A stretch of 64,000 nt of DNA from Thermoanaerobaculia bacterium. GTDB lineage: Bacteria > Acidobacteriota > Thermoanaerobaculia > Gp7-AA8. The position numbers and the translations under genes were made by a program. Positions 7,599-64,000 of the stretch are shown here, in pieces. The DNA is taken from contig JBGSYJ010000285.1 of NCBI GenBank assembly GCA_041750915.1, forward strand, positions 848-64,847. Direction: 5' to 3'. The notes under the pieces were generated by a model, which was given only the letters and a program-made list of their open reading frames with translations, did not search any database and was not told where the DNA came from. The number at the start of each line of letters is the position of its first letter. The stretch's first letter is position 1.

Positions 7599-7738
7599 CT
7601 GGATCTCCGTTCGCTTCGATTGTAGGCGGAGGACCGTTCCGCCTGATGTTCAGTTTAATACAGAAAGTGGTTATTTGAATTCCCGGAGGCTGATCGGCGG
7701 GACCTCATTTTCCAGACTCTTTCGCTGGCCACGGCGCC

Positions 7739-8152
7739 TCAATCTGCCGGATCGCATAGCTCCGTTGGCGACAGAAACAGGATGTTTTTGACCCGTTCCT
7801 TTCTGAACTCGAACGACAGAAGCCACTTCGTTTCTCTGCCCTTGTGACGACCCGCTGCACAGAGGATGACGAGTTCTTCGTCGCTCGAAAACTGCTGCGT
7901 CGTGAAGGTCACGCTTTCGAATTCGCGATCGAAGCCGGGGAGGATTGCGTCGTTCTTTCTCGCGATTACGATGTGTTCATCGTCGGTCACGTTGACGATG
8001 TATACACGCTCATCGGTGACCTTCCTGAGCTTTTTCGTATCGCGAGCCTCCAGCGCCGTCAGGAACTCGCGGACGGTTGCATCCTGCCGTTCGCCCCCGA
8101 GCAGCGGTGTTGCGAGCAGAACCATTGCGACGACGAGAACGTGCCTGTACAT
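7739..8152 (-). CDS. hypothetical secreted protein
   Basis: The ATG at 8152 is preceded by GGAGAG and followed by the signal peptide MYRHVLVVAMVLLATPLLG. The upstream part of the listed ORF (to 8209) is a probable over-extension. Confidence 0.5.
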   Translation of the reverse strand: MYRHVLVVAMVLLATPLLGGERQDATVREFLTALEARDTKKLRKVTDERVYIVNVTDDEHIVIARKNDAILPGFDREFESVTFTTQQFSSDEELVILCAAGRHKGRETKWLLSFEFRKERVKNILFLSPTELCDPAD

Positions 8153-8466
8153 TTCATCTCTCCTCGAACCCGGGATCGGCATGTCACGGACGACTCGGGG
8201 AGATTCCATTGTGGCCTGCTGCGCCCCCGATCGTCAAAACTCGGGCGGCGAAGCTTCGCCGGGGAAGGTGTGGATGAAGCGCGTAGGTCGCGCGAGACCG
8301 ACCCGTCCTGCGGCGATTGTCAGTCGCGCGGAATGTGAAATGGGACTTCGTCGACGGGAGCCGCCGATCCAAATTCCCGAGCGTCTTCGAAGTCGGGAGA
8401 TTTCTCCTGTTCCTGGCTGATCCGTTCCGATGATTCTTCTTCGATGTTCACGATTGCCTCCCTTGT

Positions 8467-9762
8467 TTACCGTGCTGCAAACTGGGCTGTTTCCGTGGAC
8501 TCGTCCAGGGCCGTAGTCGAAGCTTTTCCTCCGGAGATGACCCTGGTGACCTCGTCGAAGTAGCCGGTGCCGACTTCGTGCTGGTGTTTCGTCGCCGTAT
8601 ACCCGTTGGCTTCCGCCGCGAACTCGGCCTGCTGCATCCGCGAGTAGGCGGTCATTCCCTCGTCGCGGTAGCTTCGCGCCAGCTCGAACATCGAATGGTT
8701 CAGGGCGTGGAAGCCGGCGAGCGTAACGAACTGGAACCTGTACCCGAGCTCTGCCAGTTCGCGCTGGAAGCTCGCGATCGCACCTGCCGAGAGTTTTTTC
8801 GCCCAGTTGAATGAGGGCGAGCAGTTGTACGCCAGCAGTTTTCCCGGAAACTCCGCATGGATGGCTTCTGCGAATCGGCGCGCCTCCGCGATGTCGGGTG
8901 TCGAGGTCTCCATCCACAACAGATCGGCGTACGGCGCGTAGGCAAGTCCACGTGCGATGGCCGGTTCGAGCCCTCCACGCGTCACATGAAAACCTTCCGC
9001 AGTTCGTTCGCCCGTGAGGAATCGATGATCGCGGTCATCGATATCACTCGTGATGAGCTTCGCGCTTCCGGCGTCCGTTCGCGCGATGAGCAGTGTCGGC
9101 ACGCCGCAGACGTCGGCAGCGAGCCGCGCTGCCGCGAGCGTGCGGATGAAGCCGCCCGTCGGCACGAGCACTTTGCCGCCCAGATGACCGCACTTCTTTT
9201 CCGAGGCAAGCTGGTCTTCGAAGTGAACGGCGGCGGCGCCTGCTTCAATCATCAGCTTCATCAGCTCGAACGCGTTGAGGGATCCCCCGAAGCCGGCTTC
9301 CGCATCCGCGACGATCGGCGCGAACCAGCAGGTGCCGTTGCGCCCCTCGCTGTGGTCGATCTGGTCGGCGCGCTGGAGCGCCTGGTTGATCCGCTTGACC
9401 ACGTGAGGCACGGAGTTGGACGGATAGAGACTCTGATCGGGGTACATATGCCCCGCGAGGTTCGCGTCTGCGGCGACCTGCCACCCGCTGAGGTAGATCG
9501 CTTTGAGGCCTGCCCGAACCTGCTGGATCGCCTGGTTGCCGGTCAGTGCTCCGAGCGCAGCAACGTATGGCTCCTCGGAGAGGAGGCGCCACAGCCGATT
9601 CGATCCGAGCTCCGCGAGTGTGTGGGCGATGTCGATTCCGCCGCGCAGCCGAAGCACGTCTTCGGCGGAATAGTCCCGTACGACGCCCTTCCAGCGCGGA
9701 TCGCTGCTCCACTCCTGTTCGATGGTCGCTGCGCGGTTCACTTCCCTGAGTGCTGCCATCAT
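8467..9762 (-). CDS. aceA: isocitrate lyase
   Basis: The ICL signature KKCGHLGGK is present and the product is 431 aa. The start overlaps the aceB stop by 4 nt. Confidence 0.95.
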
Positions 9763-11375
9763 GCGGCTCCTTTTTCGAGTGTGAGCAGTTCCTGGTAAGC
9801 GGGTATGGTCAGAAAATCTGCCAGCTCGTCCGCGAGGATCAATTCATCGAAAATGCGCGCGGCGCGATCGAGATATCCCGCGGCGGCGCGATCTTCTCCG
9901 AGCCGTTCGCGGATCGACGCGAGCTCCTCATCCCTCATGCGGCCATAGAGGGCGGCGTCGAGGCCTCTTCCGTCGTCGAGCACCGCTCCGTGATGAATCC
10001 ACTGCCACAATTGCGTTCGCGAGATCTCGGCAGTGGCCGCGTCCTCCATCAGGTTGTAAAGCGGCACACAGCCGAGTCCTGCAAGCCAGGCTTCGAGATA
10101 GAGCACCCCGACGTTGATGTTCTGCCGCACGCCGCTCTCGGTGATTGGGCCTTTTGGGAGTCGGAGCAGATCCTCGCGGCTGATATGGACATCCCCGCGT
10201 TTGCGATCGATCTGGTTTGGTCCCGGCATGTGCTCGTCGAAGATCCGCTTAGCGATGGGGACGAGTCCCGGGTGCGCGACCCAGGTTCCGTCGTGGCCGG
10301 CCCTCACCTCACGCAGCTTGTCGGCTTCGACCTTCCGCATCGCGGCGGCGTTCGCGTCCGGGTCGTTCCGGATGGGAATCTGAGCCGCCATGCCTCCCAT
10401 CGCATGAATGCCGCGGCGATGACATGTCTGAATGAGCAGATCGACGTATGCGGCGAGGAAATCTTTGTCCATGGAGATCAGCGCGCGGTCGGGAGTGATG
10501 AATCCGTCACGCGCTCTGAACTTTTTGATGAAGGAAAAGATGTAGTCCCAGCGCCCGCAGTTCAGTCCAGCCGAGTGGTCGCGCAGTTCCCACAGGATCT
10601 CGTGCATTTCGAACGCTGCGAGAATGGTTTCGATCAGCACGGTTGCGCGAATCGAGCCGTCGGGAATTCCGAGCTCGCGCTGCGCGAACACGAAGACGTC
10701 GTTCCACAGTCGCGCCTCGAGGTGCGACTCCAGCTTCGGAAGATAGAAGTAAGGCCCGGTGCCTCGAGACTGCGCTTCCTTCGCGTTGTGAAAGGAGTAG
10801 AGGCCGAAATCGAAGAGGCTTGCGCTCATCGGCTTTCCGTCGACCACAAAGTGCTCTTCCAACAGATGCCATCCGCGTGGACGGACCATCAACGTTGCCG
10901 TCCGTTCCTCCAGCCGGTATTGCTTCGTACCGCTGTCGAAAGAGATTGTTCGCCGGACGGCGTCGCGCAGGTTGATCTGGCCTTCGAGATTGTTCGCCCA
11001 CGTCGGAGCGTTGGCATCCTCGAAATCAGCCATAAACACGCTCGCGCCGGAATTGAGCGCGTTGATGATCATCTTCCGGTCCGTAGGCCCCGTGATCTCG
11101 ACACGCCGGTCGAGCAGATCCTTGGGGATGTCCGCGGTAGTCCAGTTGCTGTCGCGAATCTCGCGTGTTTCGGGCAGGAAATCGGGCAATTCGCCCGCGT
11201 CGAGTCTCGCGGCGCGCTCCAGCCGATGGGAGAGCAGCGTTTCACGGCGGGCTCCGAACGTCCGCTGGAGCCGGGTGAGAAATGTTGTGGCTTCAGGAGT
11301 GAGGATGCCGGCCGAGGCCGCCTGCGACCCTGGAGTGCCGGGGTTGGGATCGGATGCTTCAGGTTGTTTGATCAC
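9759..11375 (-). CDS. aceB: malate synthase A
   Basis: A 538-aa product with conserved malate synthase A blocks ([28 protein letters not shown]; WVAHPGLV). It forms an operon with aceA. Confidence 0.95.
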
Positions 11376-50547: not shown

Positions 50548-50757
50548 GTAGACAGGAGACAGTAGACAGTAGACAGTAGACAGGAGACAGTAGACAGTAG
50601 ACAGGAGACAGTAGCCCACCCGCCCCGGGTACTGGCTCGCTCCTCCGGCGTTCCAGCTGGCAGGGAAGGCTTTACAGCAAACTGCGTCTCCCGACGGGTG
50701 TGTTCGCTGAAGGGACGGGCGGGCTACTGTCTCCTGTCTACTGTGTACTGTCTACTC
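50548..50757. repeat. composite 7-mer inverted repeat, copy 2 ((GTAGACAG)n...82-bp spacer...(TACTGTC)n)
   Basis: Same architecture and the same GCCC(A/G)CCCGCCC / GGGCGGGC junctions as copy 1. Confidence 0.85.
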
Positions 50758-50798
50758 AAAAAGAGAACCTCTCATCATCCCAGTCCGTCTCACATTCA

Positions 50799-51407
50799 AT
50801 GGTTCGCTTCAGGAGAGACGAAATCGCGTCGAAACGATACCTGGCACTGCTGGGACTTCTGATCCTTCTTGTTCCCTGCGGTTTCGCGGAGCCGGTCAGA
50901 GGAAATCACGCCGTTCGTCTCGCGAGGGCTGCGGAGGCTCAGGTTGGCGTGACGCGCCACTACGATCCCGCTTATGTTGCGCTTGCCTACCCCGGGGGCG
51001 ATGTGCCGCGCGACCGAGGAGTCTGCACGGATGTCGTGGTGCGCGCGTTTCGTGGAATCGGAATCGATCTCCAGAAGGAGCTTCATGAAGACATGCGTCG
51101 GAGTTTCAGTTCGTATCCCCGCAACTGGGGATTGACGAGACCCGATCGGAACATCGATCATCGCCGCGTTCCGAATCTGATGACCTGGTTCACCCGGCAG
51201 GGAAAGAAGGTTCCTCCCGGCGGCCGGACGATCGCCGGCGATGTCGTTGCCTGGAAATTGCCCGGCGGCCTTCTGCACATCGGCGTGGCCGCCGTCGATC
51301 TCGAACCCGGAACGAACCGGCCGCTGATGATTCACAACATCGGTGCGGGCGCGCAGAAAGAGGACATTCTGAACGCGTACGAGATCATTGGGCATTACCG
51401 CTGGTGA
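50799..51407 (+). CDS. DUF1287-like secreted protein
   Basis: The signal peptide is followed by YDPAYVALAYPGGDVPRDRGVCTDVV, typical of the DUF1287/YijF-like family. The upstream part of the listed ORF is translated repeat. Confidence 0.6.
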   Translation: MVRFRRDEIASKRYLALLGLLILLVPCGFAEPVRGNHAVRLARAAEAQVGVTRHYDPAYVALAYPGGDVPRDRGVCTDVVVRAFRGIGIDLQKELHEDMRRSFSSYPRNWGLTRPDRNIDHRRVPNLMTWFTRQGKKVPPGGRTIAGDVVAWKLPGGLLHIGVAAVDLEPGTNRPLMIHNIGAGAQKEDILNAYEIIGHYRW

Positions 51408-51476
51408 CGGCTTTATCCTCTCCGCCGTCGCCGTCGCCGCAAAATTGTGGCAACTCAAGCAACGGGTGTCATCCTG

Positions 51477-51553
51477 AGCGTTAGCGAAGGATCCCCCCAG
51501 GGTTTGCGACACAGCCAGTAGTGAGGGGATCCTTCGCTGCGCTCAGGATGACA
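51477..51553. repeat. hairpin element with TGTCATCCTGAGCG termini and CGAAGGATCCCC inner arms
   Basis: GTGTCATCCTGAGCGTTAGCGAAGGATCCCC...GGGGATCCTTCGCTGCGCTCAGGATGACAC. Confidence 0.75.
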
Positions 51554-51588
51554 CTTGCTCGAACCCGGTCCCACTCACAACTCAGAAC

Positions 51589-52554
<966 letters not shown>

Positions 52555-52563
52555 GATGTCCTC

Positions 52564-53622
52564 TCAGGCGTAAACGTCGGTCGTGAGCTCGTCGAAGCTC
52601 GGGTAAGGGGATTCGGTGGCGAAGAGGACGGCATCTTCGACTTTCTGTTGTGCGCGTTCACGCATCACCGTGATGTCGTCATGGTCAAGCGTGCCGCGAT
52701 CGAGAAGACGCTTTTCCATCAATCTGATCGGGTCGCGCTCTTTCCAGGACGCGAGCTCGTTTTTGTCGACATACGACTGGTCGTCCGGCTCCATGTGTCC
52801 GCGCAGGCGGTAGGTGTACGTCTCGAGGAGGAATGGCTTCTTCTCCGTGCGGATGTATTCGACCGCTTCTCTTGCGGCAGCGAGAACGGACTCGACGTCG
52901 TTGCCGTCGACGGTGCGCGACTTCACGCCGTACGGTTTTGCCCACTCGCTGATGTAGTCGCCTTTCATCGTCTCCTTCCGGTGGACGAAGGCCTGCCACT
53001 GGTTGTTCTCGCAGATATAGAGAATCGGCAGGTCCCATATGGCAGCGAGGTTGAGCGACTCGTGGAAGATGCCTTCACTCGCTGCTCCGTCTCCGAAGAA
53101 GCAGGCGACGATCGCGTCGCTGTCGGACATCGAGACCGAAAGTCCGACTCCCGGCGCGAGTGAAAGCTCACCGCCGACGATCGTTGATGTGAGCACGACG
53201 CCGAGCTCTTTCGCCGAGATGTGAAGGCTTCCGCTTTTGCCTTTGCAGTAGCCGGTGCTCCTGCCCATGATCTCGGCCATGACGCGCCCGGGATCTGCGC
53301 CGCGGGCCAGCAGATGGCCGGCGCTGCGGTGGTTGGTCAGGATGAGGTCCTGAGCCTCGAGCGCACCCATGACGCCTACGGCCGACGCTTCCTGGCCGAC
53401 CGACGTGCACATGCTGGGGGACTGCCCCGCAGCTTGGAGCGAGGCAGATTTCTCTTCGAACGTTCGGATCAGCAGCATCGTTTCGAGCTGCCGGATTGCG
53501 TCGGTACCCGCTTCGCTTTCGCGAAACCCGATGAGCTCAGGGTTGGTAATTGTGTTGACGGTGGTCAAGGTAAGCTCCTCTTCTGAAGTGTTCCGGTTGT
53601 ATTGATGTGGCGGCTCGATCAT
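52564..53622 (-). CDS. 2-oxoacid dehydrogenase E1 component alpha subunit (TPP-binding)
   Basis: TPP motif GDGAASEGIFHESLNLAA...NN. The start is uncertain between the ATG at 53622 and a TTG 6 nt after GAGGAG near 53577; the listed ORF start at 53766 is probably too long. Confidence 0.75.
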   Translation of the reverse strand: MIEPPHQYNRNTSEEELTLTTVNTITNPELIGFRESEAGTDAIRQLETMLLIRTFEEKSASLQAAGQSPSMCTSVGQEASAVGVMGALEAQDLILTNHRSAGHLLARGADPGRVMAEIMGRSTGYCKGKSGSLHISAKELGVVLTSTIVGGELSLAPGVGLSVSMSDSDAIVACFFGDGAASEGIFHESLNLAAIWDLPILYICENNQWQAFVHRKETMKGDYISEWAKPYGVKSRTVDGNDVESVLAAAREAVEYIRTEKKPFLLETYTYRLRGHMEPDDQSYVDKNELASWKERDPIRLMEKRLLDRGTLDHDDITVMRERAQQKVEDAVLFATESPYPSFDELTTDVYA

Positions 53623-53815
53623 CGGCAGCCGTTCAGACTCGTGAGAATTTACGGTCGGAGTCAGGCGCAGTTTCCCTAAGACTTCGCTACAAATGTGCGA
53701 AAACATCGCTTGTGCGACTGCGAGAGATGCCGGGATTCTTAAGACAATGCTAAGTCTTGTTGACACCGGACCTTCATGAGCGTAGCGTCCAGATGTATAC
53801 GGTTACATTCCAACG

Positions 53816-54889
53816 ATGACGAAACGCGATGACACCGCTGCCCCCAGGACCCGCCAGCACGGCGCGACGGTCAGGGACGTCGCATCCAGGGCAGGCGTGT
53901 CAGTAGCTACCGTGTCGCGAGTTTTGAATGATCAGAACGTCGTCCGTGAACCGACGATCGGTCGCGTTCGGAGCGCGATGGAGGAGCTCAATTATGTTCC
54001 TCATGGCGGCGCGCGCAGCCTTTCCACTCGGAGGACGAATACTGTCGGTCTGGTGCTCCCGGATCTTCACGGCGAGTTCTTCTCGGAGATGATCCGCGGA
54101 GTCGACGTCGCGGCGCGAAGGCAGGGGTATCACTTGCTGGTCTCCGGATCGCACAGCGACTGGAACGAGATGTCTGCGGTGGTCTCGGCAGTCCGTGGGC
54201 GAGTCGATGGGCTGATCGTAATGGCGCCGGAGCTCGACGCCGAGAACGTACACACGCATCTTCCTGCCGGACTTCCCGCGGTGCTGCTGAACTGCTACGC
54301 CACGAACGCATGGTCCATCGCCGTCGATAACGTCCGTGCTGCGCGCTCGATGATGGATCATCTCGGATCGCTGGGTCACCGGCGCATTGCGTACATTCGC
54401 GGCCCCGAGGGCAACAACGACGCGGCCGAGCGCCTGCGTGGCTGGGGGGAAGCCCTGGGCGAATCTGGCGTGAGCCAGGAAAAGCTGCTTTTCGAGGGCG
54501 ACTTCAGCGAGACCGCCGGCTACGGCGCGGCCTACGCGATCATGTCGGAGGACACGGATGCCACGGCGATTTTCGCAGGCAACGACGCGATGGCCATCGG
54601 TGCGCTCTGCGCGCTGCGCGAGTTGAATGTTCGCGTGCCCGAGGACATGGCGGTGGTCGGGTTCGACGACATTCCGCTCGCGCGGTTCGTCTCTCCGCCA
54701 CTCACGACGATCAGCGTCGACATCGCCGAGCTCGGCCGACGCGCCTTCGATCTCGTACTTGAGGCGGGGGAGGAGGGCAGCACTCCGCGTCACTCAATCG
54801 TTCCCACCCGTCTGGTCATCCGCGAGTCGTGTGGCTCGCGCCCTTCATCGGGCAAAGCGTTGAAAGAGCTCTCGAAATCTGAGGCCTGA
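53816..54889 (+). CDS. LacI family transcriptional regulator
   Basis: HTH ATVRDVASRAGVSVATVSRVLN plus a periplasmic-binding-protein-like sugar-binding fold. Confidence 0.85.
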   Translation: MTKRDDTAAPRTRQHGATVRDVASRAGVSVATVSRVLNDQNVVREPTIGRVRSAMEELNYVPHGGARSLSTRRTNTVGLVLPDLHGEFFSEMIRGVDVAARRQGYHLLVSGSHSDWNEMSAVVSAVRGRVDGLIVMAPELDAENVHTHLPAGLPAVLLNCYATNAWSIAVDNVRAARSMMDHLGSLGHRRIAYIRGPEGNNDAAERLRGWGEALGESGVSQEKLLFEGDFSETAGYGAAYAIMSEDTDATAIFAGNDAMAIGALCALRELNVRVPEDMAVVGFDDIPLARFVSPPLTTISVDIAELGRRAFDLVLEAGEEGSTPRHSIVPTRLVIRESCGSRPSSGKALKELSKSEA

Positions 54890-54893
54890 GCAT

Positions 54894-55044
54894 GTGGCAG
54901 GGCCCTCCGAGGCCCTGCCTTGTCTGAATAGTAAGGATGAATGCAGTTGGAGCATTCATCCAGCCGCGTCAGTCAGAGCTCCAGCCAGGTGTCGTACATC
55001 TTCACTGCTCGCCGAGGCAGGGCCTCGGAGGGCCCTGCCACATG
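54894..55044. repeat. REP-like array (GTGGCAGGGCCCTCCGAGGCCCTGCC ... TGGAGCATTCATCC ... GGCAGGGCCTCGGAGGGCCCTGCCACATG)
   Basis: Same family as the array at 34733-34912. Confidence 0.8.
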
Positions 55045-55060
55045 GCGCTACAATCTGCTG

Positions 55061-56080
55061 ATGCCGGCGACGATTGAATCCTTCCTGCCCGAGGAGGAGG
55101 GTGCTTCTTTCTACGAGCTGGTTACATCTGATACTCAGCGGACCGCTTCAACCATCCGTCAACTGGCAAACCGCGGCCCCGTCCGCCTCTTCGTGGCGAT
55201 CGGCGAGACGGGTCCCGTCGCGCGACTCGTCACGCAAATCTCACCGGCGTATCGCGATGGCGAGGGCAACCCGCTCGGTCTCATAGGATTCTTCGACGCA
55301 CAGAACGACCCGGATGCGGTGTCTGAGCTCTTTGACGCCGCGGCGGCCACGCTCCGGCAATATGGCTCCCGTAAGATGATCGGGCCGATCGACGGCGACA
55401 CGTGGCACCGATACCGGGTCAATGCGGGGCCGTTCGAGACACCTCCCTTTCTCCTCGAGCCGTGGAATCCGCCTTACTACGCTGAACTGTGGGAACGCTC
55501 GGGATTCACGATTCTCGAGACGTACTCATCGAGACGCATCGATGATGTGGAGCCTGTGGCCGAGCGACTGTCAGAGAAATTCGCCAGCGCACGAAATGGC
55601 GGCTACGTCTTCGAGCCCTTCGATCGAAGCGACTTTCAGCGGACACTCGAGCGCATCTACAGGCTGTCGCTCGAGATCTTCCGCGACAACTATCTGTACT
55701 CGGACATTTCGTTCGACGACTTCTGCTCGCTCTATTACGGAGCCGATCGGCTCATCGAGGACGATTCCATCTGGTTCGCGAGGGCGCCTGACGGCAGCGA
55801 CGCAGGCTTCGCGTTCACCTATCCCAACCGCACGCCGAAGGACCCGCACGGCGATGCGTTGAACTTCAAGACCCTCGGAGTTCTGCCCGCTCACCGCCGC
55901 GGTGGCACCGGCGCCGCCCTGATGTTCTGTGGTTACGAGGCGGGACTGCGAAGGGGCTTTCAGGCTGTGAATCACTGCCTGATGCGCGCGGGCAACCCAT
56001 CCGAGAAGCTCGACTCAGGTCACGGGAAACCATTCCGCGAGTATTTTCTCTACGAGAGGGCGGTGAAGAGTGAAGGGTGA
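55061..56080 (+). CDS. GNAT-fold acyltransferase-like protein (FemAB/BioF2-like or N-acyl amino acid synthase-like)
   Basis: C-terminal LGVLPAHRRGGTGAALM resembles GNAT motif A. No Shine-Dalgarno sequence precedes the start, and the family assignment is tentative. Confidence 0.45.
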   Translation: MPATIESFLPEEEGASFYELVTSDTQRTASTIRQLANRGPVRLFVAIGETGPVARLVTQISPAYRDGEGNPLGLIGFFDAQNDPDAVSELFDAAAATLRQYGSRKMIGPIDGDTWHRYRVNAGPFETPPFLLEPWNPPYYAELWERSGFTILETYSSRRIDDVEPVAERLSEKFASARNGGYVFEPFDRSDFQRTLERIYRLSLEIFRDNYLYSDISFDDFCSLYYGADRLIEDDSIWFARAPDGSDAGFAFTYPNRTPKDPHGDALNFKTLGVLPAHRRGGTGAALMFCGYEAGLRRGFQAVNHCLMRAGNPSEKLDSGHGKPFREYFLYERAVKSEG

Positions 56081-56101
56081 AAGTGAAGAGTGAAAAAGGG
56101 G

Positions 56102-56205
56102 CCCTCACCCCTGACCCCTCTCCCGCCGGGAGAGGGGAACCACCGCCCGTGCACGAGGGGTGGCGATGCCCCTCTCCCGACGGGAGAGGGGTCAGGGGTG
56201 AGGGA
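56102..56205. promoter_or_regulatory. nested GC-rich palindrome overlapping the Shine-Dalgarno sequence of the downstream ligase gene
   Basis: Outer arms CCCTCACCCCTGACCCCTCTCCCG / CGGGAGAGGGGTCAGGGGTGAGGG enclose two CCCCTCTCCCG-N-CGGGAGAGGGG hairpins and a CCACC...GGTGG centre. The 3' arm ends in GAGGGAG 6 nt before the ATG at 56211. Confidence 0.6.
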
Positions 56206-56210
56206 GCTTC

Positions 56211-57803
56211 ATGCGCAACCTGAGCCGGGGTTCCGGGAGCGTCGTCGAGCTCTTTCGCAATGTTGCACGCGAGCATCCTTCAAAGATTGCCTTTCATGAA
56301 GGCAGTGAGTCGATCCGGTTCGATGCTCTTTGGGAACGGATCGCACGATTCTCCACAGGTCTGGTGCAGAAGGGCTTCGGTCCGGGCGATCGCGCCATCG
56401 TCATGGTCCCGATGTCGATCGACCTCTACGTGGTCCTTCTCGGCGTTCTGAAGACGGGCGGTACGGCAGTGTTTCTCGATCCGTGGGTTGGCTGGAGGCG
56501 CCTGATCGACCTGGCCCGTTTCGCGGGTGCCGCAGCGTGGATCGGAACGACGAAAAGTCACATCCCGCGGCTGTTCGATTCCGAGCTCCGTGCGATTCCG
56601 CTCGCGATCAGCCGCGGATCGTCGTTGCTAGCCCGCGAGTCGATGGCATCGATCGAGTCGCACGGTGTTGACGAGGCGATTCACCAGTCCAGCGCCGAAG
56701 ACACGGCGCTCGTGACGTTCACGACAGGATCGAGCGGTACGCCGAAGGGAGTTCGGCGTACGCACGGAATTCTCGAAGCGCAGCATCGCGCGCTTGCAGC
56801 GGAGTTTCCGGCGAAACCGGGCGAGGTCGATCTCTGCACGTTCCCCGTTTTTGCCCTGAACAATCTCGCGCTCGGCGTCACGACGGTGATTCCGCCGGTC
56901 GACCTGAAACGAATCGATCGCGCCGATCCGTACCGGGTCATGGAGGCTATCCGCCATCACCGGGTCACGACCGCGACCGCGTCACCTCCGCTCTTCGACG
57001 CGCTGGCGTATGCGGCGTCATCAGATGTCTCTTCATCGTTGCGACGGATTCTGACTGGCGGAGCGCCTGTGGAAGATCGGCAGTTGCAGAGCTGGACGAA
57101 AGCGTTTCCCGACACATCCATCGAGGTCGTCTACGGCTCGACGGAAGCGGAGCCGGTGGCGCACCTCGGTTCCGCAGAGCGTCTCGAGCTCGCGGGCAGC
57201 CGCGGCTACACGGTTGGCCGGATCGCGTCTTCGGTCCGGGCCGCCGTCGTGCGGATCGATCGCGGGCCGCTCGAGGCGAAGAGTCGAAACGGATGGATCT
57301 CGCTGCAGGTTCCCCATGGTGACATCGGAGAATTGCTCGTTACCGGAGACCATGTCTGTCGCGACTATGATCGCAATCCCGAAGCTGCGCGCGAGAACAA
57401 GATTGTCGATCCGGAGGGCGTGGTGTGGCACCGAATGGGGGACACCGGATGGTTCGACGATAGAGGGCGGTTTCGAATTGCGGGACGGGTTCACTCCACG
57501 ATCGTGAGGAACGGATTGATGATTCACCCGCAGCTCGTCGAACAGGTCGCACGCGGTGAAGACCTGCGCATTCGCCGCGCCGCCGCAGTCGGAATCCCCG
57601 ATCCGTCGATGGGCGAGAGGCTGGCGGTCGTCTGCGAAAGTGATGATGACGTCGCTTCCGCAGTCGAAAGCCGGCTTGGTGATGCAGAGATCACCTTCGA
57701 TCAGGTTCTCGCGACATCGAAGCCTCTTCCTGTCGACCCTCGGCACAACAGCAAGGTCGATTATCCGGCACTGCGCGACATGCTCATGGATGGACGCGTC
57801 TGA
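56211..57803 (+). CDS. AMP-dependent synthetase/ligase (adenylate-forming; fatty-acyl-AMP/CoA ligase-like)
   Basis: FTTGSSGTPKGV (A3) and GDTGWFDDRGRFRIAGR (A8-like) motifs. Confidence 0.8.
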   Translation: MRNLSRGSGSVVELFRNVAREHPSKIAFHEGSESIRFDALWERIARFSTGLVQKGFGPGDRAIVMVPMSIDLYVVLLGVLKTGGTAVFLDPWVGWRRLIDLARFAGAAAWIGTTKSHIPRLFDSELRAIPLAISRGSSLLARESMASIESHGVDEAIHQSSAEDTALVTFTTGSSGTPKGVRRTHGILEAQHRALAAEFPAKPGEVDLCTFPVFALNNLALGVTTVIPPVDLKRIDRADPYRVMEAIRHHRVTTATASPPLFDALAYAASSDVSSSLRRILTGGAPVEDRQLQSWTKAFPDTSIEVVYGSTEAEPVAHLGSAERLELAGSRGYTVGRIASSVRAAVVRIDRGPLEAKSRNGWISLQVPHGDIGELLVTGDHVCRDYDRNPEAARENKIVDPEGVVWHRMGDTGWFDDRGRFRIAGRVHSTIVRNGLMIHPQLVEQVARGEDLRIRRAAAVGIPDPSMGERLAVVCESDDDVASAVESRLGDAEITFDQVLATSKPLPVDPRHNSKVDYPALRDMLMDGRV

Positions 57804-58765
57804 TGACTGCGACGACCGGCATCGATGAGCGGACCGCTCCCTTTCTCCGCCGGTTTCACCTCTACCTCCGCGAGCGTTTTCCACTTCTCGGCCACGGCAT
57901 CCTGATCGTCAGCTACTACTCTTCGAATCAGTTCCTTGCGCGCGCCATCACGCAGCCGGGAACTCCGATGCATTTCGACTGGGTGTCGATCGCCGGAGTC
58001 GTCGCGCTGCTCTGCTTTTTCTTTCACCTGCGCGTCTTCGATGAGCACAAGGACTTCGAGGATGACAGTCGCTATTACCCTCACAGAGTTCTCCAGCGCG
58101 GGGTGATCACCCTTCGCGAGCTCCGCATCGTTGGAGGCATCGCCATCGCGCTCGAGCTGCTGATCTCGGCGTTTCGTGGCGCTGCTGCCACCACAGGCTG
58201 GCTGATTGCGTTCGTTTTCTCGCTGCTGATGCTCCGCGAGTTCTTCGCGCGCGACTGGCTTCGCCGGCATTTTCTCGTCTACGCGATGAGCCACATGCTC
58301 CTCATGCCGCTCCTGTCGCTCTGGGTGTTCTCGTTTGCGACGGGACGCTACCCATGGGAGGCGCCAGGACTCTACTGGATGTATGCCCTCGTCGGTCTGT
58401 TCGTGACCTTGAACTGGGAAGTCTCTCGCAAGATCCGCGCGCCTGAGCAGGAGATCGAAGGGGTCGAAACCTACTCGACGATCTTCGGTACGTATGGTGC
58501 CGCCTGGCTCGTGCTCTTCATCCGCATCATCGACACCGCTCTCGTTGCCTACGTGGGATATGCCCTCGGCTTCGGCACGTTTTTCTATGTCGCGATCGCG
58601 CTGCTGTATCTCGCCTGTGTCGTCGGATTCCTGCAATTCCGGATCATGACGACACCGCGGTCGGCGAAGATGATGGAAGTGTATGCAGGTGTCTACATGA
58701 TCGTCTTCGACATTCTCGTAGCGGTGGAACTCGGAAGAACTCGAGGCCTCGAGGTGTCGATGTGA
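57803..58765 (+). CDS. UbiA-like prenyltransferase-family integral membrane protein (degenerate Asp-rich motifs)
   Basis: 8-9 TM helices. The first cytoplasmic loop carries FDEHKDFEDD, and a later EQEIEGVETYSTIFG block resembles the second UbiA motif. The start overlaps the ligase stop (ATGA). Confidence 0.45.
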   Translation: MTATTGIDERTAPFLRRFHLYLRERFPLLGHGILIVSYYSSNQFLARAITQPGTPMHFDWVSIAGVVALLCFFFHLRVFDEHKDFEDDSRYYPHRVLQRGVITLRELRIVGGIAIALELLISAFRGAAATTGWLIAFVFSLLMLREFFARDWLRRHFLVYAMSHMLLMPLLSLWVFSFATGRYPWEAPGLYWMYALVGLFVTLNWEVSRKIRAPEQEIEGVETYSTIFGTYGAAWLVLFIRIIDTALVAYVGYALGFGTFFYVAIALLYLACVVGFLQFRIMTTPRSAKMMEVYAGVYMIVFDILVAVELGRTRGLEVSM

Positions 58766-61458
58766 GCGGGCCTCCGATCCTTCGCATGGACGCTGGCGTG
58801 CACGCCGTCGGAGCGGCTGGAGGCAAGGGCGCGAATCTTTCACGCCTCGTGAAGCTGGGCCACGAAGTGCCTCCGTTCGTCGTAGTTTCTCCCGCGGCGC
58901 TGGACCAGGCGCTTCATTCGTCCGGAGCGATCAGTGCGATCGCGGAAATCCTCGCCGGACTGGATGCGGATCGAGTCGGTGAACAGGCTCGCGCGATTCA
59001 GTCCATCGTGTCGCAGACGCCCGTTCCGGATCAATTGCGCACGGAGATTCTGGACGCCGTGCGCGAGATCATCGGATCGGACGATTTCGCAGCAGTGCGC
59101 TCTTCGGCTCTCGATGAAGACGCGGCTGCTTTGTCATTCGCAGGATTGCACGACAGCTTTCTCTTCGTGCGCGGGGACGACGCTCTCATCGACGCGATCC
59201 GCCGCGTCTGGGCCTCCGCGTTCAACGAGAGGGCGCTCGCATACCGCTTGAGCTCCGGCGCCGGCGTGCACGCGATCTCCATCGCCGTCGTCGTGCAGAA
59301 AATGATCGATCCGCGGGCGAGCGGAGTCGTCTTCACCGTGAATCCGGTGAACGGAAGCGTGCAGCAGGTGCTCATCAATGCGCTCTATGGGACAGGGGAG
59401 GGGCTGGTGAGCCGCGGGTTCGACGCCGACAGCTTCGTCGTCGACAAGCAGACGCTGAAGATCGAGGCGACGGTTGCCATCAAGTCCGAAGCGGTTGTGA
59501 TGGCAGCGGGTGGGGGAGTGAAGGATGTCGCGGTGGCCGAAGATCGAGCGGGCCTCCCGAGTCTGTCGGATGAGGAAGCGAGGTCCGTTGCAAAGGCCGC
59601 GATCGCGATCGAGAACAGCTTCAGGAAACCGCAGGACATCGAGTTTGCGTTCGATCATGCCGGGAAGCTCTTCGTTCTTCAGACGCGGCCGATCACGACA
59701 GCGGCGGAGTATGGTCCTGCTGCGGGAAATCCGCTTCTATGGGACAACTCGAACATCATCGAGAGCTTTTCCGGCGTCACCTCGCCCATGACGTTCAGCG
59801 TGATCCGGCGCGCATACACGATCGTCTATCGATGCTTCGCGGAGGTAATGGGGATCCGGCCGGGGGTTGTGCAGGAGAACCGGTTCGTCTTCGAGAACAT
59901 GCTCGGCCTGTTCCGTGGTCAGGTGTACTACAACCTCCTCAATTGGTACCGGCTCGTCGGAATGTTCCCCGGGTTCAACTACAACCGGGCCTTCATGGAA
60001 TCGATGATGGGTGTGCGGCAGCCGGCTGCCACCGTCGAAGCCGCGCCGCAGCCTGCGATGCAGCGCTATTTCGTCGAGTTGCCGGCCTTGCTGAAGCTTC
60101 TTGGCCGGTCCGGACGGAACTTCTTTCGCATTCGCACTCTCACTGCCGAGTTCGAGACGAACTTCCGCGAAAACTACAGTCGCTGGTCGAAGATCGATCT
60201 CGATTCACTCAGGCCGCACGAGCTGATGAATCTCTACCTCGAGTTCGAAGAGAGGGTGCTCTGGAAGTGGCGCGCGCCGATCATCAACGACTTCTTTGTG
60301 ATGATCTTCTACGGCGTGCTTCGGAAGCTGACGGCGAAGTGGTGCGGTGATGAGGGAGGCTCGCTTCAGAACGATCTCATCTCCGGGGAAGGGGGGATCG
60401 AGAGTACGGAGCCGGCGAAACAGCTGCTGCGCATGGCGGCAGTCGCTGCGCGTGATGAAGCACTCCGCGAGGTGATCGTGACACAGGGGCCGGACGAGGC
60501 GCTGTCGAGGGTCCGCGGCGAAGCAAGGTTTGCATCCTTCAACGGAATGATTGATCACTACCTCGAGCTCTACGGATTCCGCTGCATGAATGAGCTCAAG
60601 CTCGAGGAACCGTCGCTGCGCGACAACCCCGCGTTCCTGCTGATGCTGCTCCGGAACTATCTGACGGGTGACGCGAGCCGGCTCGATCTGGCCGCACAGG
60701 ATGCGCGCGAGAAGGAGATCCGGAGGGATGCAGAACGGCGCGCCTTCGGTGCGATTCGCTCTCCTTTCAAGCGGGCCGTCTTCCGGCGCGTCCTCGCCAA
60801 CGCGCGCCTCGGAGTGAAGAACCGCGAGAACATGCGGTTCGCGCGGACCCGCATCTTCGGTCTCGTGCGCGAGGTGATGCGCGCCATCGGCCGGCAGTTT
60901 ACGGCGGAAGGACTCATCGCGACTCCCCAGGACGTCTTCTTCCTGACTTTGGATGAAGTGTTCGATTACATCAAAGGTACGGCGGTTACCACCGATCTCG
61001 CAGGGCTGATCGATCTGCGGCGTCGAGAGTTCGAAGCGTACCGCGCAGGCACTCCCGCGGACGACCGCTTCGAGACGTTCGGCATGGCTTACCATCGCAA
61101 TGCGTTCGCGGGCCCACGCGATGAGACGCCGATTGAGGAAGGAGTGCTGCGCGGAACGCCGTGCTCCCCAGGCCGGATCACCGGGGCGGTCAAAGTCCTG
61201 CGATCTCCTGACGAGGCGCGACTTTCCGGCGAAATCCTCGTCGCCGAGCGGACCGATCCCGGATGGGTTCCGCTCTACCCGTCGATCTCGGGTCTGCTCA
61301 TCGAGCGGGGGAGCATCCTGTCGCACTCGGCGATCGTCGCGAGAGAGATGGGGAGTCCGACGATCGTTGGGATTCGAGGTCTCACCGACACGTTGAAGAG
61401 CGGCGACGTCGTGACGATGGACGGCTCCGCGGGCTCGGTGCATGTCGTTGATCCTTGA
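58762..61458 (+). CDS. PEP-synthase/pyruvate-phosphate-dikinase-family enzyme (ATP-grasp PPDK_N domain plus C-terminal swivel His domain; rifampin-phosphotransferase-like architecture)
   Basis: The N-terminal GGKGANLS and the C-terminal ERGSILSHSAIVAREMGSPTIVG are the two hallmark blocks. The product is 898 aa and its start overlaps the preceding stop. Confidence 0.8.
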   Translation: MSGPPILRMDAGVHAVGAAGGKGANLSRLVKLGHEVPPFVVVSPAALDQALHSSGAISAIAEILAGLDADRVGEQARAIQSIVSQTPVPDQLRTEILDAVREIIGSDDFAAVRSSALDEDAAALSFAGLHDSFLFVRGDDALIDAIRRVWASAFNERALAYRLSSGAGVHAISIAVVVQKMIDPRASGVVFTVNPVNGSVQQVLINALYGTGEGLVSRGFDADSFVVDKQTLKIEATVAIKSEAVVMAAGGGVKDVAVAEDRAGLPSLSDEEARSVAKAAIAIENSFRKPQDIEFAFDHAGKLFVLQTRPITTAAEYGPAAGNPLLWDNSNIIESFSGVTSPMTFSVIRRAYTIVYRCFAEVMGIRPGVVQENRFVFENMLGLFRGQVYYNLLNWYRLVGMFPGFNYNRAFMESMMGVRQPAATVEAAPQPAMQRYFVELPALLKLLGRSGRNFFRIRTLTAEFETNFRENYSRWSKIDLDSLRPHELMNLYLEFEERVLWKWRAPIINDFFVMIFYGVLRKLTAKWCGDEGGSLQNDLISGEGGIESTEPAKQLLRMAAVAARDEALREVIVTQGPDEALSRVRGEARFASFNGMIDHYLELYGFRCMNELKLEEPSLRDNPAFLLMLLRNYLTGDASRLDLAAQDAREKEIRRDAERRAFGAIRSPFKRAVFRRVLANARLGVKNRENMRFARTRIFGLVREVMRAIGRQFTAEGLIATPQDVFFLTLDEVFDYIKGTAVTTDLAGLIDLRRREFEAYRAGTPADDRFETFGMAYHRNAFAGPRDETPIEEGVLRGTPCSPGRITGAVKVLRSPDEARLSGEILVAERTDPGWVPLYPSISGLLIERGSILSHSAIVAREMGSPTIVGIRGLTDTLKSGDVVTMDGSAGSVHVVDP

Positions 61459-61580
61459 GAAGGGAGCGCTTCACAGTGATCTTCCCTCTGCCCGCCCTTA
61501 GCTGCGTCTCACGCGCAGGAAGAAGTTCGGGGAGAGGGGAGGACGTCGTCGGCATCGACTGGCGCAATGGGCCAATGCAT

Positions 61581-62933
61581 CTACCGTGGAAACGCCTCGA
61601 TAATCTCTGCCTGTTGCAACGCCGCGATCAGGGCAGCTGAAGCAAGCGCCAGGAGAAACGAGATCCCGCTCCAGCCGCGAGGGGACTCGCCCTCGAGACG
61701 CATGCGGCCCAGCGATGCATTGACAACAGTGATGAGAATGGCAGCGAATGCAATTGCGCGAAGCGTGTCGAAGGATGGGGCTCCTCCCACGAGCATCCAC
61801 ACCGGAATTCCGACAACGAGCGCCGCGACTGCCGCGATCACGCCGGCTGCGATCGCATCGCCCCATCGCTGGAACAGGTTCAGACGGATCCGCCCATCCC
61901 ACCAGACGAGTGCGAGCACCATGATCGTGGCCATCAGATATGGCGCGTAAAAGAATCCGTACCGGCCGGTGAGATTGGCGGCGAGCAGCACGATGAACGG
62001 GACGAGGATGGCGTGGGTGATCACCCGCACACGGAGTGGCTCTCCTTCGCGTCCCATGACGAATGCCCGGACGAAGACGAAGGCGACGATGGCGAGGAGC
62101 ACCGGCAGCGCCCATCGTCGCGACCCGAGAGACCATGTTGCGAAGGTGAAGAGAACGACGGCGATCATGCCGCCGGCGTTGAACGAACGAAACCGCCAGA
62201 CGATGAGCGCCATGAGCGCAAAGATCGCGAGGAAGCTGATGTTCTGGTAGGCGATCTCGGCGAGCGGCTTCGTCGTGATCTTCTGAAGAACGAAACAGAC
62301 AGCAATCGGGATGAACAGGTTGTCCGTTCCGCGCAGTGAAATCGCTTCGAAGCCTGTCACCAGCATTGCGACGAGGAGCGCCGAGAGCACCGTCACTGGA
62401 CGTGGCAGATCCGTCATCAGCAGCATCGGCAGATGAACCGCCAGGAATGCAACCACGAGGAAGACGAGAGAGCCTTCCACGCTCTTGTGTTCGTCTTCGA
62501 CCTCATAACGAAGACGCCCGTATCTGCTGCCGATCAGTGCTGCGAACGCATCGGCTACTGCGAGCACGAGCAGCGCGCTCACGTAGAGCCAGGGCTGATC
62601 CGCCGCGATCAGGAACACGATGAAGATCGCGAGTGGATAGTATTCGCTCCCTCTGCTCTTCCGCTCGACTCCGTGAAGGCTGCGCAGGAGGCCGAACCGA
62701 CCTCCGAGGAAGAAGATCGCGGAGAGCGACGCTGTAAGCATCAGCACTACGAGCGGAGATCGGATCAGAAAGGGGAGGGAGAGCCCGACCAGCCCACCTC
62801 CAACGTGGACCAGCTTCCTCGTCCATTCGGGCTTTGCGTTCCCGACTCGAATCCAGATCTCGGCAGAAACAAGAAGGATGGCGAAGACGCTGGCTATGAT
62901 CGCCGCCCCCGTAATGTCGGAGTTTGAGATCAC
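61581..62933 (-). CDS. polyprenol (dolichol/phytol)-kinase-like CTP-dependent kinase domain fused to an extra polytopic membrane domain
   Basis: VADAFAALIGSRYG (DxxAxxxGxxxG) and KSVEGSLVF (KxxEG) motifs of the CTP_transf_1 kinase subfamily lie in the N-terminal half, followed by about 8 more TM helices. Confidence 0.55.
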   Translation of the reverse strand: MISNSDITGAAIIASVFAILLVSAEIWIRVGNAKPEWTRKLVHVGGGLVGLSLPFLIRSPLVVLMLTASLSAIFFLGGRFGLLRSLHGVERKSRGSEYYPLAIFIVFLIAADQPWLYVSALLVLAVADAFAALIGSRYGRLRYEVEDEHKSVEGSLVFLVVAFLAVHLPMLLMTDLPRPVTVLSALLVAMLVTGFEAISLRGTDNLFIPIAVCFVLQKITTKPLAEIAYQNISFLAIFALMALIVWRFRSFNAGGMIAVVLFTFATWSLGSRRWALPVLLAIVAFVFVRAFVMGREGEPLRVRVITHAILVPFIVLLAANLTGRYGFFYAPYLMATIMVLALVWWDGRIRLNLFQRWGDAIAAGVIAAVAALVVGIPVWMLVGGAPSFDTLRAIAFAAILITVVNASLGRMRLEGESPRGWSGISFLLALASAALIAALQQAEIIEAFPR

Positions 62934-64000
62934 CGCGCGACCTCATCGATCCTGAATGCACTGTAGAAAAAGGCGCGATCTCGCAGGAACAGCTCCTTCG
63001 CGAGATCGGTGCGCTCAATGATCCGGTCCGCAAATACCTCGGGCCGTCTCCTTGGAACGAGCATGTTCCAGTACGCGAGTCGTGCGCCCGGACGGGCGGT
63101 GTCAAGGAGACGTCCGTAGAGACGCTCGGTCGTCGCAGGATCGAGATACTCGAAGATGTCCGACAGATTGTAGCCGTCGAATTTGCCGCCCGCCTGGAGC
63201 CCGACTTCGTCGATCGGTCCCTGGCGGATCGTGAGACGATTCATGCCCGAGCGGAGCGAGGCGAGGGAATCGGATCTCAGGTAACGAGGAAGCGCGGTGC
63301 CATAGTTTCCGGTGAAGATCGATGTAAGGTAGGGATTGTCATGAGTCGGGAGCTGCGTGAACGCGTATTCGGCGCGGGCACGGATGCGATCCGCAACGGA
63401 GCCTTCGACGAAGCGGAAGAACTCCGGATCGCGTCCGAGGCGTCCCATGACCAGGCGACTGAAGAAGACGCTGAACATTGCCCGCCAGCGCACGCCGTCC
63501 CATCGCTCGTCGTAGAACTTCCTCCGTTCTTCGAATGTCTTCTCTTGCAGTAGCTTCTCGACGAGCCGATGTCCGTGAACGAGTGGAAGTACGCGAGTCC
63601 GGAAGAGGCGGAAATAGTTCTCGAACTTTCCGTGATGGATGATGCCGTTCCTGATGGCGCCGGTCGACGCATCCCAGTAGTTTCGCGATTCGGAAGGGAG
63701 GGCAAGTGCGAGCCGGGCGTAGACCTCGAGGCGCTCGTTGCTCGGTCGCACGCCGAGGAATGCGAGAAGCGGTTCGTCATCGAGTTGGAGGATGGCAGCC
63801 TTCTTCAGCTCGACCAGGTGCAGCTGAGCCGAACTGATGTCGGCAGCCACGACCTCCGCGCCTGCGGCGACGAGAGCAAAGGCGTTGTCTCCGGCCGAGG
63901 CGATGGAGAGAATCCGGCGTCCCGTGGCGGCGTCGAGTGCCTCATGGAGGATGTCGGCGTCCTCCCAGACATTCGCGTAGCGAATCTGGTCGAAGCGCGC
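62930..64000 (-). CDS. DUF3419 / BtaA-like protein (SAM:diacylglycerol 3-amino-3-carboxypropyl transferase family); the 5' end lies beyond the window
   Basis: Reading the minus strand to the window edge gives ...YANVWEDADILHEALDAATGRRILSIASAGDNAFALVAAGAEVVAADISSAQLHLVELKKAA, the conserved BtaA-like N-terminal core. The frame is open at position 64000. Confidence 0.7.
   Translation of the reverse strand, partial: ARFDQIRYANVWEDADILHEALDAATGRRILSIASAGDNAFALVAAGAEVVAADISSAQLHLVELKKAAILQLDDEPLLAFLGVRPSNERLEVYARLALALPSESRNYWDASTGAIRNGIIHHGKFENYFRLFRTRVLPLVHGHRLVEKLLQEKTFEERRKFYDERWDGVRWRAMFSVFFSRLVMGRLGRDPEFFRFVEGSVADRIRARAEYAFTQLPTHDNPYLTSIFTGNYGTALPRYLRSDSLASLRSGMNRLTIRQGPIDEVGLQAGGKFDGYNLSDIFEYLDPATTERLYGRLLDTARPGARLAYWNMLVPRRRPEVFADRIIERTDLAKELFLRDRAFFYSAFRIDEVAR

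Follow-up and report, generated by a model that had tools for sequence, protein, structure and literature searches.

What do the genes at the right-hand end of a 64,000-nucleotide stretch from a Thermoanaerobaculia bacterium (contig JBGSYJ010000285.1; the whole stretch is called the window here) make together? An earlier note, made from the letters of the window, described a convergent two-operon cluster predicted to build an unusual lipid or isoprenoid-linked molecule. The proteins in question are a tandem-GNAT acyltransferase, an adenylate-forming ligase, a UbiA-type membrane transferase, a dikinase, a two-domain membrane protein resembling lipid kinases and a member of the DUF3419 (BtaA) family. 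All six open reading frames (ORFs) stand in the ORF list of the window where they had been placed. Judged by genome comparison, they are six members of a conserved, accessory and laterally mobile cassette of seven genes, and it is almost beyond doubt that these genes are functionally linked. The evidence supports an undescribed system of lipid-type enzymes; the product and the individual reactions given below are proposals.

The linkage was established by a survey of gene neighbourhoods. A profile of the kinase-like membrane protein retrieved 80 genome loci, all from metagenome-assembled genomes (MAGs), mostly Thermoanaerobaculia, the others being from Holophagales, Terriglobia, Verrucomicrobiota, Kiritimatiellae, Victivallales/Lentisphaerae, Planctomycetota, Syntrophobacteraceae and Kofleriaceae. 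Neighbours were found by tblastn with the window proteins, and 39 loci with at least 8 kb on both sides were counted as having full flanks. The DUF3419 gene accompanies the kinase-like gene in 72 of the 74 loci with enough upstream DNA, and is immediately adjacent in 67. At least two of the ligase, UbiA and dikinase genes lie within 10 kb in 25 of the 39 full-flank loci, and all three in 20. The co-occurrence spans Acidobacteriota, Verrucomicrobiota, Kiritimatiellae, Lentisphaerota/Victivallales, Planctomycetota, Desulfobacterota (one weak locus, 28-34% identity), Bacillota and Alphaproteobacteria. The genes are thus found together in dozens of genomes across at least six phyla.

The order of the genes varies: convergent in the window and two other loci (L002, L085), upstream co-directional in L056, L066 and L080, and downstream co-directional in L070, L074 and L075. 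In the Tritonobacter-type locus an arm reading HMGR-DUF3419-kinase, where HMGR is a reductase-like gene described below, converges on dikinase-UbiA-ligase. Modules separated by more than 10 kb can still be on the same contig, 12 kb and 43 kb apart. Overlaps of 4 nt recur in relatives at the DUF3419-kinase, ligase-UbiA and UbiA-dikinase junctions. The varied gene order points to selection on proximity rather than inherited synteny.

A tblastn search of annotated plasmids with the UbiA protein gave two records, and in both the cassette is a single unit. Brevibacillus laterosporus B9 (NZ_CP011076.1, about 464.5-474.7 kb) has one co-directional operon of about 10 kb, HMGR-UbiA-dikinase-DUF3419-kinase-GNAT-ligase, and the same seven-gene order is found on the 137-kb plasmid NZ_CP121116.1 of Roseinatronobacter sp. 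S2 (L089/L090). Seven genes in one operon in Bacillota and Alphaproteobacteria, and in two or three units in Acidobacteriota and the Planctomycetes-Verrucomicrobia-Chlamydiae (PVC) group, are strong evidence for one function. The five genes first described as a cluster therefore do belong together, but the unit has seven genes and convergence is one of several arrangements. Chance juxtaposition of unrelated genes, with which the two separate transcription units of the window would agree, is refuted by the survey, since the genes co-locate across phyla in differing orders and form a single operon in two distant lineages; its probability is next to nil.

Some details of these records deserve mention. 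The B9 record, labelled 'plasmid unnamed2' (L088), is 1.38 Mb long and carries 16 annotated features only, none of them over the cassette; it may be a chromid or a mislabelled piece of chromosome. The Roseinatronobacter HMGR-like gene spans the record origin and is missing from the gene table, and was found by tblastn on the rejoined sequence. In a Holophagales MAG (L083) a gene for a 901-aa protein with a Pfam Sulfatase/Phosphodiest domain (7294-9999) is inserted between the ligase and UbiA genes, and a conserved 527-aa protein with no family match is encoded upstream of GNAT.

Table 1. Predicted features of the cassette in the window
Feature	Position	Strand	Remarks
Tandem-GNAT N-acyltransferase	55061..56080	+	339 aa; GNAT fold
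Near-perfect palindrome, ~103 nt	56102..56204		fills GNAT-ligase gap
Adenylate-forming acyl-CoA-type ligase, 530 aa	56211..57803	+	AMP-binding
Divergent UbiA-superfamily membrane transferase, 320 aa	57803..58765	+	Pfam UbiA/PRK13592
Rph/PigC-type 'substrate, water dikinase', 898 aa	58762..61458	+	PPDK_N + PEP-utilizers
Two-domain polytopic membrane protein, 450 aa	61581..62933	-	CTP_transf_1/dolichol-kinase-like N-terminal ~225 residues
DUF3419/BtaA-family SAM-dependent transferase	62930..64000, 5' end past window	-	Pfam DUF3419

The overlapping stops and starts reported for the plus-strand genes were found at both junctions. The ligase stop TGA (57801-57803) shares 1 nt with the UbiA ATG at 57803 (TGATG), and the dikinase gene starts with a GTG at 58762, which gives it a 4-nt overlap with the UbiA stop at 58763-58765 (GTGA). 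On the minus strand, the DUF3419 stop (62930-62932) likewise overlaps the GTG of the membrane-protein gene at 62933 by 4 nt (GTGA), and both genes converge on the plus-strand arm as had been read. The arms meet over a 122-nt gap, 61459-61580, which was checked for a terminator; its RNA fold is unremarkable (z = -1.7). The GC content is uniform through the region (0.60-0.64), and a search around the cassette in four loci gave no riboswitch or other known RNA. A LacI gene at 53816-54889 was considered as the cassette regulator and rejected, as a close relative (L003) retains LacI without the operon.

The seventh gene came from clustering the ORFs of all loci, which showed a protein of about 430 residues encoded directly upstream of DUF3419 on the same strand. 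The protein matches the Pfam family of 3-hydroxy-3-methylglutaryl-coenzyme A (HMG-CoA) reductase (HMGR), class I, with 360-393 bits. The gene is present in 27 loci, including several more similar DUF3419 loci (L004-L007, L013, L026, L031, L079), and all 11 full-flank loci that have it also carry the ligase/UbiA/dikinase trio. By comparison with these loci, the HMGR-like gene here would sit just past the end of the window.

Alignment of 23 cassette-linked HMGRs, none of them from the window, with two solved class-I enzymes showed that the catalytic residues E559, K691, D767 and H866 are kept in all 23, save two gaps at the ends of tblastn fragments. D690, K692, H752, N755 and R590 are also kept, and so are most residues of the pocket. 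Two residues differ throughout: Ser684 is replaced by Glu, and Lys735 is absent. Istvan and Deisenhofer reportedly found in 2001 that Lys735 pairs with the terminal carboxylate of HMG. Ser684 and Lys735 form part of the HMG pocket (PMC7503714). The enzyme scores 335.7 bits against the NCBIfam equivalog TIGR00533, whose cut-off is 441.8, and 293 bits against the solved enzyme 6hr7 (PDB). Because these pocket residues are changed while the catalytic residues are kept, the substrate is probably not HMG-CoA; the enzyme would still turn a CoA thioester into an alcohol, but one without HMG's terminal carboxylate. A role in the mevalonate pathway was rejected on the altered pocket and the lack of partner genes, other mevalonate-pathway genes not being among the conserved neighbours of the cassette loci.

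The families assigned to the six window proteins were tested with profile hidden Markov models. Four assignments are direct, the GNAT protein was placed by its fold, and the kinase-like protein was placed transitively and by its motif. The ligase, UbiA-like and DUF3419 labels of the earlier note all held.

The DUF3419 reading frame is open to base 64000, with the first ~10-15 codons past the window end; about 356 of about 365 codons are present, and orthologues are typically 364-370 aa long. The listed ORF matches Pfam PF11899 with 161 bits (E = 5e-47) over profile positions 57-381. The protein also has a weak match to the class-I methyltransferase motif I. To our knowledge, BtaA is the one characterised activity in the DUF3419 family. 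Such a strong match raises the possibility of a betaine-lipid pathway, of the diacylglyceryl-trimethylhomoserine (DGTS) or diacylglyceryl-homoserine type, replacing phospholipids under phosphate limitation. Diacylglycerol could then be the shared substrate of the DUF3419-kinase pair, the CTP_transf_1 family including CTP-dependent diacylglycerol kinases. A BtaB-type N-methyltransferase is absent from the window and from the conserved neighbours of the 80 loci, however, and DGTS synthesis has no use for the five other enzymes that are conserved. This explanation is improbable, and identity with the BtaA/BtaB pathway itself was rejected on the absence of BtaB.

About 29 loci (L008, L011, L012, L016-L020, L035, L039 and others) have a gene for a purine nucleoside phosphorylase of PunA type upstream of DUF3419, about 0.9 kb away. 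These loci are mostly from Thermoanaerobaculia, with some from Holophagales and unclassified Acidobacteriota. The PunA gene is often the immediate upstream neighbour of DUF3419 and on its strand; some loci have it thousands of bases off or on the opposite strand, and it never shares a locus with the HMGR-like gene. Its candidacy as a methylthioadenosine phosphorylase (MTAP) supporting transfer of an aminocarboxypropyl (acp) group was rejected on profile scores (288 bits versus 218 for PunA, 79 versus 275 for MTAP). Its place next to DUF3419 is probably lineage synteny.

The partner of DUF3419 is a membrane protein with two parts. The N-terminal ~225 residues are CTP_transf_1/dolichol-kinase-like, and the C-terminal ~220 residues form another conserved membrane domain. 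An invariant motif, D127xxA130xxxG134xxxG138-x9-H148-K149-S150-x-E152-G153, is found in 29 sequences. The published CTP-binding motif of dolichol kinase is DxxAxxxGxxxGx8KKTxEG (PMC5853391). Compared with this, the invariant motif has one residue more in the spacer, His for the first Lys and Ser for Thr. A homologue, P0503, with 34% identity to the window protein (E = 2.7e-51), matches CTP_transf_1 (PF01148) with 28.7 bits over a cut-off of 24. A structure model was obtained with a pLDDT of 86.5. This transitive match, the published motif and a weak structural match to CdsA together support placing the N-terminal half in the CTP_transf_1/dolichol-kinase family. The earlier description of a polyprenol-kinase-like protein fused to a second membrane domain thus stood through a homologue and the motif rather than by a direct profile match. 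In public data this marker protein of the cassette falls into over 400 clusters at 50% identity.

The plus-strand trio begins with the ligase. It matches Pfam AMP-binding with 165 bits and, over its full length, the NCBIfam 'fatty acid CoA ligase family' PRK09274 with 371 bits; the core motifs TGSSGTPKG, YGSTE and GDTG and the A10 Lys are all present. An OleC beta-lactone synthetase was ruled out as its identity by scores below cut-off (222 versus 900 and 213 versus 850 for two OleC-type models) and by the lack of OleABD neighbours, no Ole genes being found near the ligase among the window ORFs or the recurrent neighbour families of related loci.

The UbiA protein scores 33.1 bits against Pfam UbiA, just below the cut-off of 34.2, and aligns end to end with NCBIfam PRK13592 (E = 6.6e-31). 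Its B. laterosporus orthologue passes Pfam UbiA with 56.8 bits. F-D-E-H-K-D-x3-D, the first acidic motif, does not vary among the homologues. Of solved proteins, the best relative is digeranylgeranylglyceryl phosphate (DGGGP) synthase, 6m31 (E = 0.035), and no characterised member of this UbiA subfamily was found.

The dikinase has an ATP-grasp domain, a central substrate domain and a C-terminal swivelling His domain. Pfam matched only PPDK_N (residues 18-316, 264.9 bits) and PEP-utilizers (823-891, 82.4 bits), and the same search gave no phosphoenolpyruvate (PEP)/pyruvate TIM barrel. Its homologues carry Rph_4th, and its best solved relatives are 5hv1/5fbs, which we take to be Listeria rifampin phosphotransferase. 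The catalytic His sits in the motif L-S-H-S-A-I-V-A-R-E. All scores against models of known function are below cut-off: 328 bits versus 999 for Rph (NF041857), 405 versus 1350 for RedH, 332 versus 1300 for PigC, and 310 versus 598 and 307 versus 740 for bona fide PpsA models. The identities PpsA, Rph, PigC and RedH were accordingly rejected. Because the barrel is absent, the relatives are of Rph type and the scores are far below the equivalog cut-offs, the 898-aa protein is classed as an Rph/PigC-type dikinase. In the earlier label, 'PEP-synthase/rifampin-phosphotransferase-like', the second half fits the domains and architecture and the first half does not, as the barrel is lacking.

The likeness to RedH and PigC could be read as the mark of a diffusible secondary metabolite, a prenylated acid or amide or the product of a PigC-like ATP-driven condensation. 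The cassette is accessory, plasmid-borne in places, and occurs in B. laterosporus, a prolific producer. The scores of 405 and 332 bits are nonetheless far from what those models require; polyketide synthase, nonribosomal peptide synthetase and pyrrole-pathway genes are absent; the seven proteins include two polytopic membrane enzymes from lipid-phosphate families; and the cassette is widely distributed, mostly on chromosomes, with clusters at 50% identity numbering several hundred. A secondary metabolite is thus a poor candidate for the product.

Enzymes of the Rph/PigC architecture phosphorylate hydroxyl groups with the beta-phosphate of ATP, and UbiA enzymes use diphosphate esters or polyprenyl phosphates. 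Given these substrate types and the coupling of the two genes, it is plausible that the dikinase supplies the UbiA-type enzyme. A related logic is known from the phytol route of plants and cyanobacteria, in which the CTP-dependent kinase VTE5 and a second kinase, VTE6, precede a UbiA-type prenyltransferase (VTE2/HPT). The cassette might similarly serve salvage, turning isoprenoid acids or alcohols that occur free into the prenyl diphosphates that prenylation needs, the dikinase replacing VTE6 and the ligase and HMGR-like enzyme reducing the acid to the alcohol. It has the CTP-type polyprenol-kinase motif, a UbiA enzyme translationally coupled to a second ATP-dependent phosphorylating enzyme, and both a ligase and a thioester-to-alcohol reductase. 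Salvage would, however, leave the universally paired DUF3419 enzyme and the GNAT/formyltransferase step without a role, and genes of an aromatic-acceptor pathway are not conserved nearby. It appears unlikely as the function of the cassette.

The longest ORF of the GNAT gene starts at 54941 (379 aa), as does the database protein P0241. The homologues have nothing that corresponds to its first 40 residues, a low-complexity stretch, and the ATG at 55061 (339 aa) is the more likely start. The protein has a two-GNAT fold with a CoA-binding motif in the C-terminal half only, and its structural neighbours N-acylate amines; to judge from the partner ligase, the acyl donor may be longer or unusual. The gene had been noticed just upstream of the ligase, and there the spacing is 130 nt, occupied by the palindrome of Table 1. 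Elsewhere, at the few GNAT-ligase junctions that could be measured, the genes overlap (by 4 nt in some loci) or lie up to 421 nt apart. The genes of a ligase and of the acyltransferase that it feeds with acyl-CoA usually stand side by side in this way.

The GNAT gene can be exchanged. It is present in 20 loci and a Formyl_trans_N gene in 8, never together, and in L056, L066 and L080 the formyltransferase occupies the GNAT slot, immediately before the ligase. GNATs and formyltransferases are both amine-capping enzymes, and an amine is what acp transfer of the BtaA type would produce; the interchange therefore suggests an amine intermediate in the pathway. The loci with Formyl_trans_N in place of GNAT include L085 (16932-19044), L056, L066, L080, L027 and L070, and these variants belong to Verrucomicrobiota, Kiritimatiellae, Planctomycetota and one Terriglobia MAG. 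The formyltransferase of the Tritonobacter-type locus is followed by a WbuX-like homologue of N-acetyl-sugar amidotransferases (164 bits).

The palindrome, which occurs once in the window, is made up of CCCTCACCCCTGACCCCTCTCCCG-N-CGGGAGAGGGG in two inverted copies. Its RNA folds with -102.7 kcal/mol (z = -11.8). The exact 24-mer core occurs in at least 120 metagenome contigs, usually as the same short hairpin. It looks like an inserted, widespread, GC-rich element of the repetitive extragenic palindrome (REP) or miniature inverted-repeat transposable element (MITE) kind, and is probably not part of the pathway.

What product would such a set of enzymes make? Two integral membrane enzymes of lipid-phosphate families (CTP_transf_1/dolichol-kinase-like and UbiA), together with neighbours of envelope type, point to a membrane or lipid theme. 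A membrane-lipid product is likely, and there is about an even chance that the cassette assembles or decorates a membrane-bound lipid with an amino-acid-type head group. The envelope-type neighbours are variable and lineage-specific: GT2/WavE/HAD genes, the Sulfatase/Phosphodiest-domain gene and the WbuX-like amidotransferase. They could instead indicate that the cassette modifies a carrier lipid of polyprenyl-phosphate type or a lipid-linked glycan of the envelope, as the Arn pathway does or as in decaprenyl-phosphoribose synthesis, in which polyprenyl phosphate receives a phosphoribosyl group from a UbiA-family enzyme. Two GT2 genes, a WavE-type gene and a HAD phosphatase gene lie upstream of the Roseinatronobacter cassette on the same strand, the formyltransferase of the Tritonobacter-type locus is ArnA-like and stands with the amidotransferase, and the Holophagales locus has the sulfatase-domain insertion. 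These neighbours are nonetheless outside the conserved seven genes; a sugar-nucleotide enzyme is not conserved, and the HMGR-like reductase and ligase would have no obvious role. Envelope-glycan modification is rated as unlikely as isoprenoid-alcohol salvage.

For the lipid with an amino-acid-type head group, the following scheme can be drawn. The ligase would make an acyl-CoA, and the HMGR-like enzyme would reduce a CoA thioester other than HMG-CoA to a primary alcohol. The CTP-type kinase-like protein, the dikinase or both would phosphorylate the lipid alcohol, and the resulting phosphate or diphosphate ester would serve the UbiA-type enzyme as donor or acceptor. The DUF3419 enzyme, like BtaA, would move the 3-amino-3-carboxypropyl group of S-adenosylmethionine (SAM) to a lipid hydroxyl; candidate lipids are a polyprenol, a diol or diacylglycerol. 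The tandem GNAT would then cap the free amine with acyl-CoA from the neighbouring ligase, and in Verrucomicrobiota-type variants the formyltransferase would do so. Any given order of these steps is a working hypothesis and doubtful as it stands. It is a tentative possibility that the product is a new membrane-lipid class, with a non-glycerol or isoprenoid-linked backbone made through reduction of an activated acid by a neofunctionalised HMGR paralogue, activation by the dikinase (phosphorylation or diphosphorylation) and UbiA coupling, and an N-acylated or N-formylated, SAM-derived head group of homoserine type. If this is true, the cassette would be the first case of a dikinase in partnership with a UbiA enzyme, and of an HMGR-family enzyme that acts on something other than HMG-CoA.

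The gene combination had been said to match no characterised pathway, and the literature on these families, within limited coverage of subscription journals, gave no described pathway that matches it. As far as can be told, the system is built of known enzyme families and is undescribed as a combination, and there is a substantial chance that its product is a new lipid class.

Several observations weigh against this reading. First, the DUF3419 protein may carry out methyl transfer or other SAM chemistry. Second, on our own reading the ligase lacks the Asp for alpha-amino binding, so that the activated acid does not appear to be fixed by sequence. Third, the second acidic motif of UbiA is atypical, a conserved Glu-rich stretch, P-E-(D/Q)-E-I-E-G-V, standing in its place. 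Fourth, Pfam and NCBIfam models match neither the window kinase-like protein nor its 28 aligned close homologues, and its structure gave no significant fold match with Foldseek, CdsA (4q2e) being the match of highest probability and not significant. Fifth, the HMGR-like gene is known from related loci, the window ending inside DUF3419. Sixth, about a third of the full-flank loci have the DUF3419-kinase pair alone within 10 kb, and the closest relative found, L003 (Thermoanaerobaculia MAG JBGTDX010000171.1; 77-85% nucleotide identity over shared segments), retains the kinase-like gene alone of the cassette. There about 400 unrelated bases replace window positions 54840-61579 (GNAT-ligase-UbiA-dikinase), and no DUF3419 homology is found upstream. 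Such pair-only loci and the lone kinase gene of L003 indicate that parts of the cassette can work or persist separately. L003 is also without most of the E1-dehydrogenase region (window about 50550-53780), and there are several indels between the otherwise collinear genomes.

Little is known of how Acidobacteriota and PVC bacteria make their membrane lipids, although they abound in soils and sediments. A new lipid class, if true, would bring new biomarkers and new head-group chemistry. A re-tooled HMGR, if true, would widen the scope of a heavily studied family and mean that an HMGR match does not always signal the mevalonate pathway. The single ~10-kb operon in cultured B. laterosporus and on the Roseinatronobacter plasmid makes the question directly testable.

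The cassette enzymes can be set beside known systems one by one. Class-I (archaeal-type) HMGRs such as 6hr7 share the fold and all catalytic residues with the cassette HMGR, which differs by Glu at 684, the absence of Lys735 and its sub-equivalog score. DGGGP synthase and the UbiA superfamily share the polytopic fold and first acidic motif with the cassette UbiA; DGGGP synthase is very distant (E = 0.035), and the second metal-binding motif of the cassette protein is Glu-rich. Rph and PigC/RedH have the same three-part architecture without the PEP/pyruvate barrel, whereas the cassette dikinase scores far below their equivalogs and is always coupled to a UbiA gene, and pyrrole-pathway genes are not among its recurrent neighbour families. 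MshD, MAB_4324 and clavulanate ORF14 share the tandem-GNAT fold at just 13-15% identity. The BtaA/BtaB system of Rhodobacter sphaeroides type has in common a DUF3419/BtaA-family SAM-dependent enzyme, for which a lipid hydroxyl is a plausible acceptor; the cassette, in contrast, has no BtaB, and its DUF3419 gene is coupled to a CTP_transf_1-like gene and travels with HMGR-like, UbiA, dikinase, GNAT and ligase genes. Phytol salvage by VTE5, VTE6 and VTE2/HPT shares the logic of a CTP-type kinase, a second phosphorylating enzyme and a UbiA-family transferase, but the cassette has an Rph/PigC-type dikinase instead of VTE6, four further enzymes and an extra membrane domain of 220 residues on the kinase. 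Thus the logic of the cassette is partly like phytol salvage and partly like aminolipid capping.

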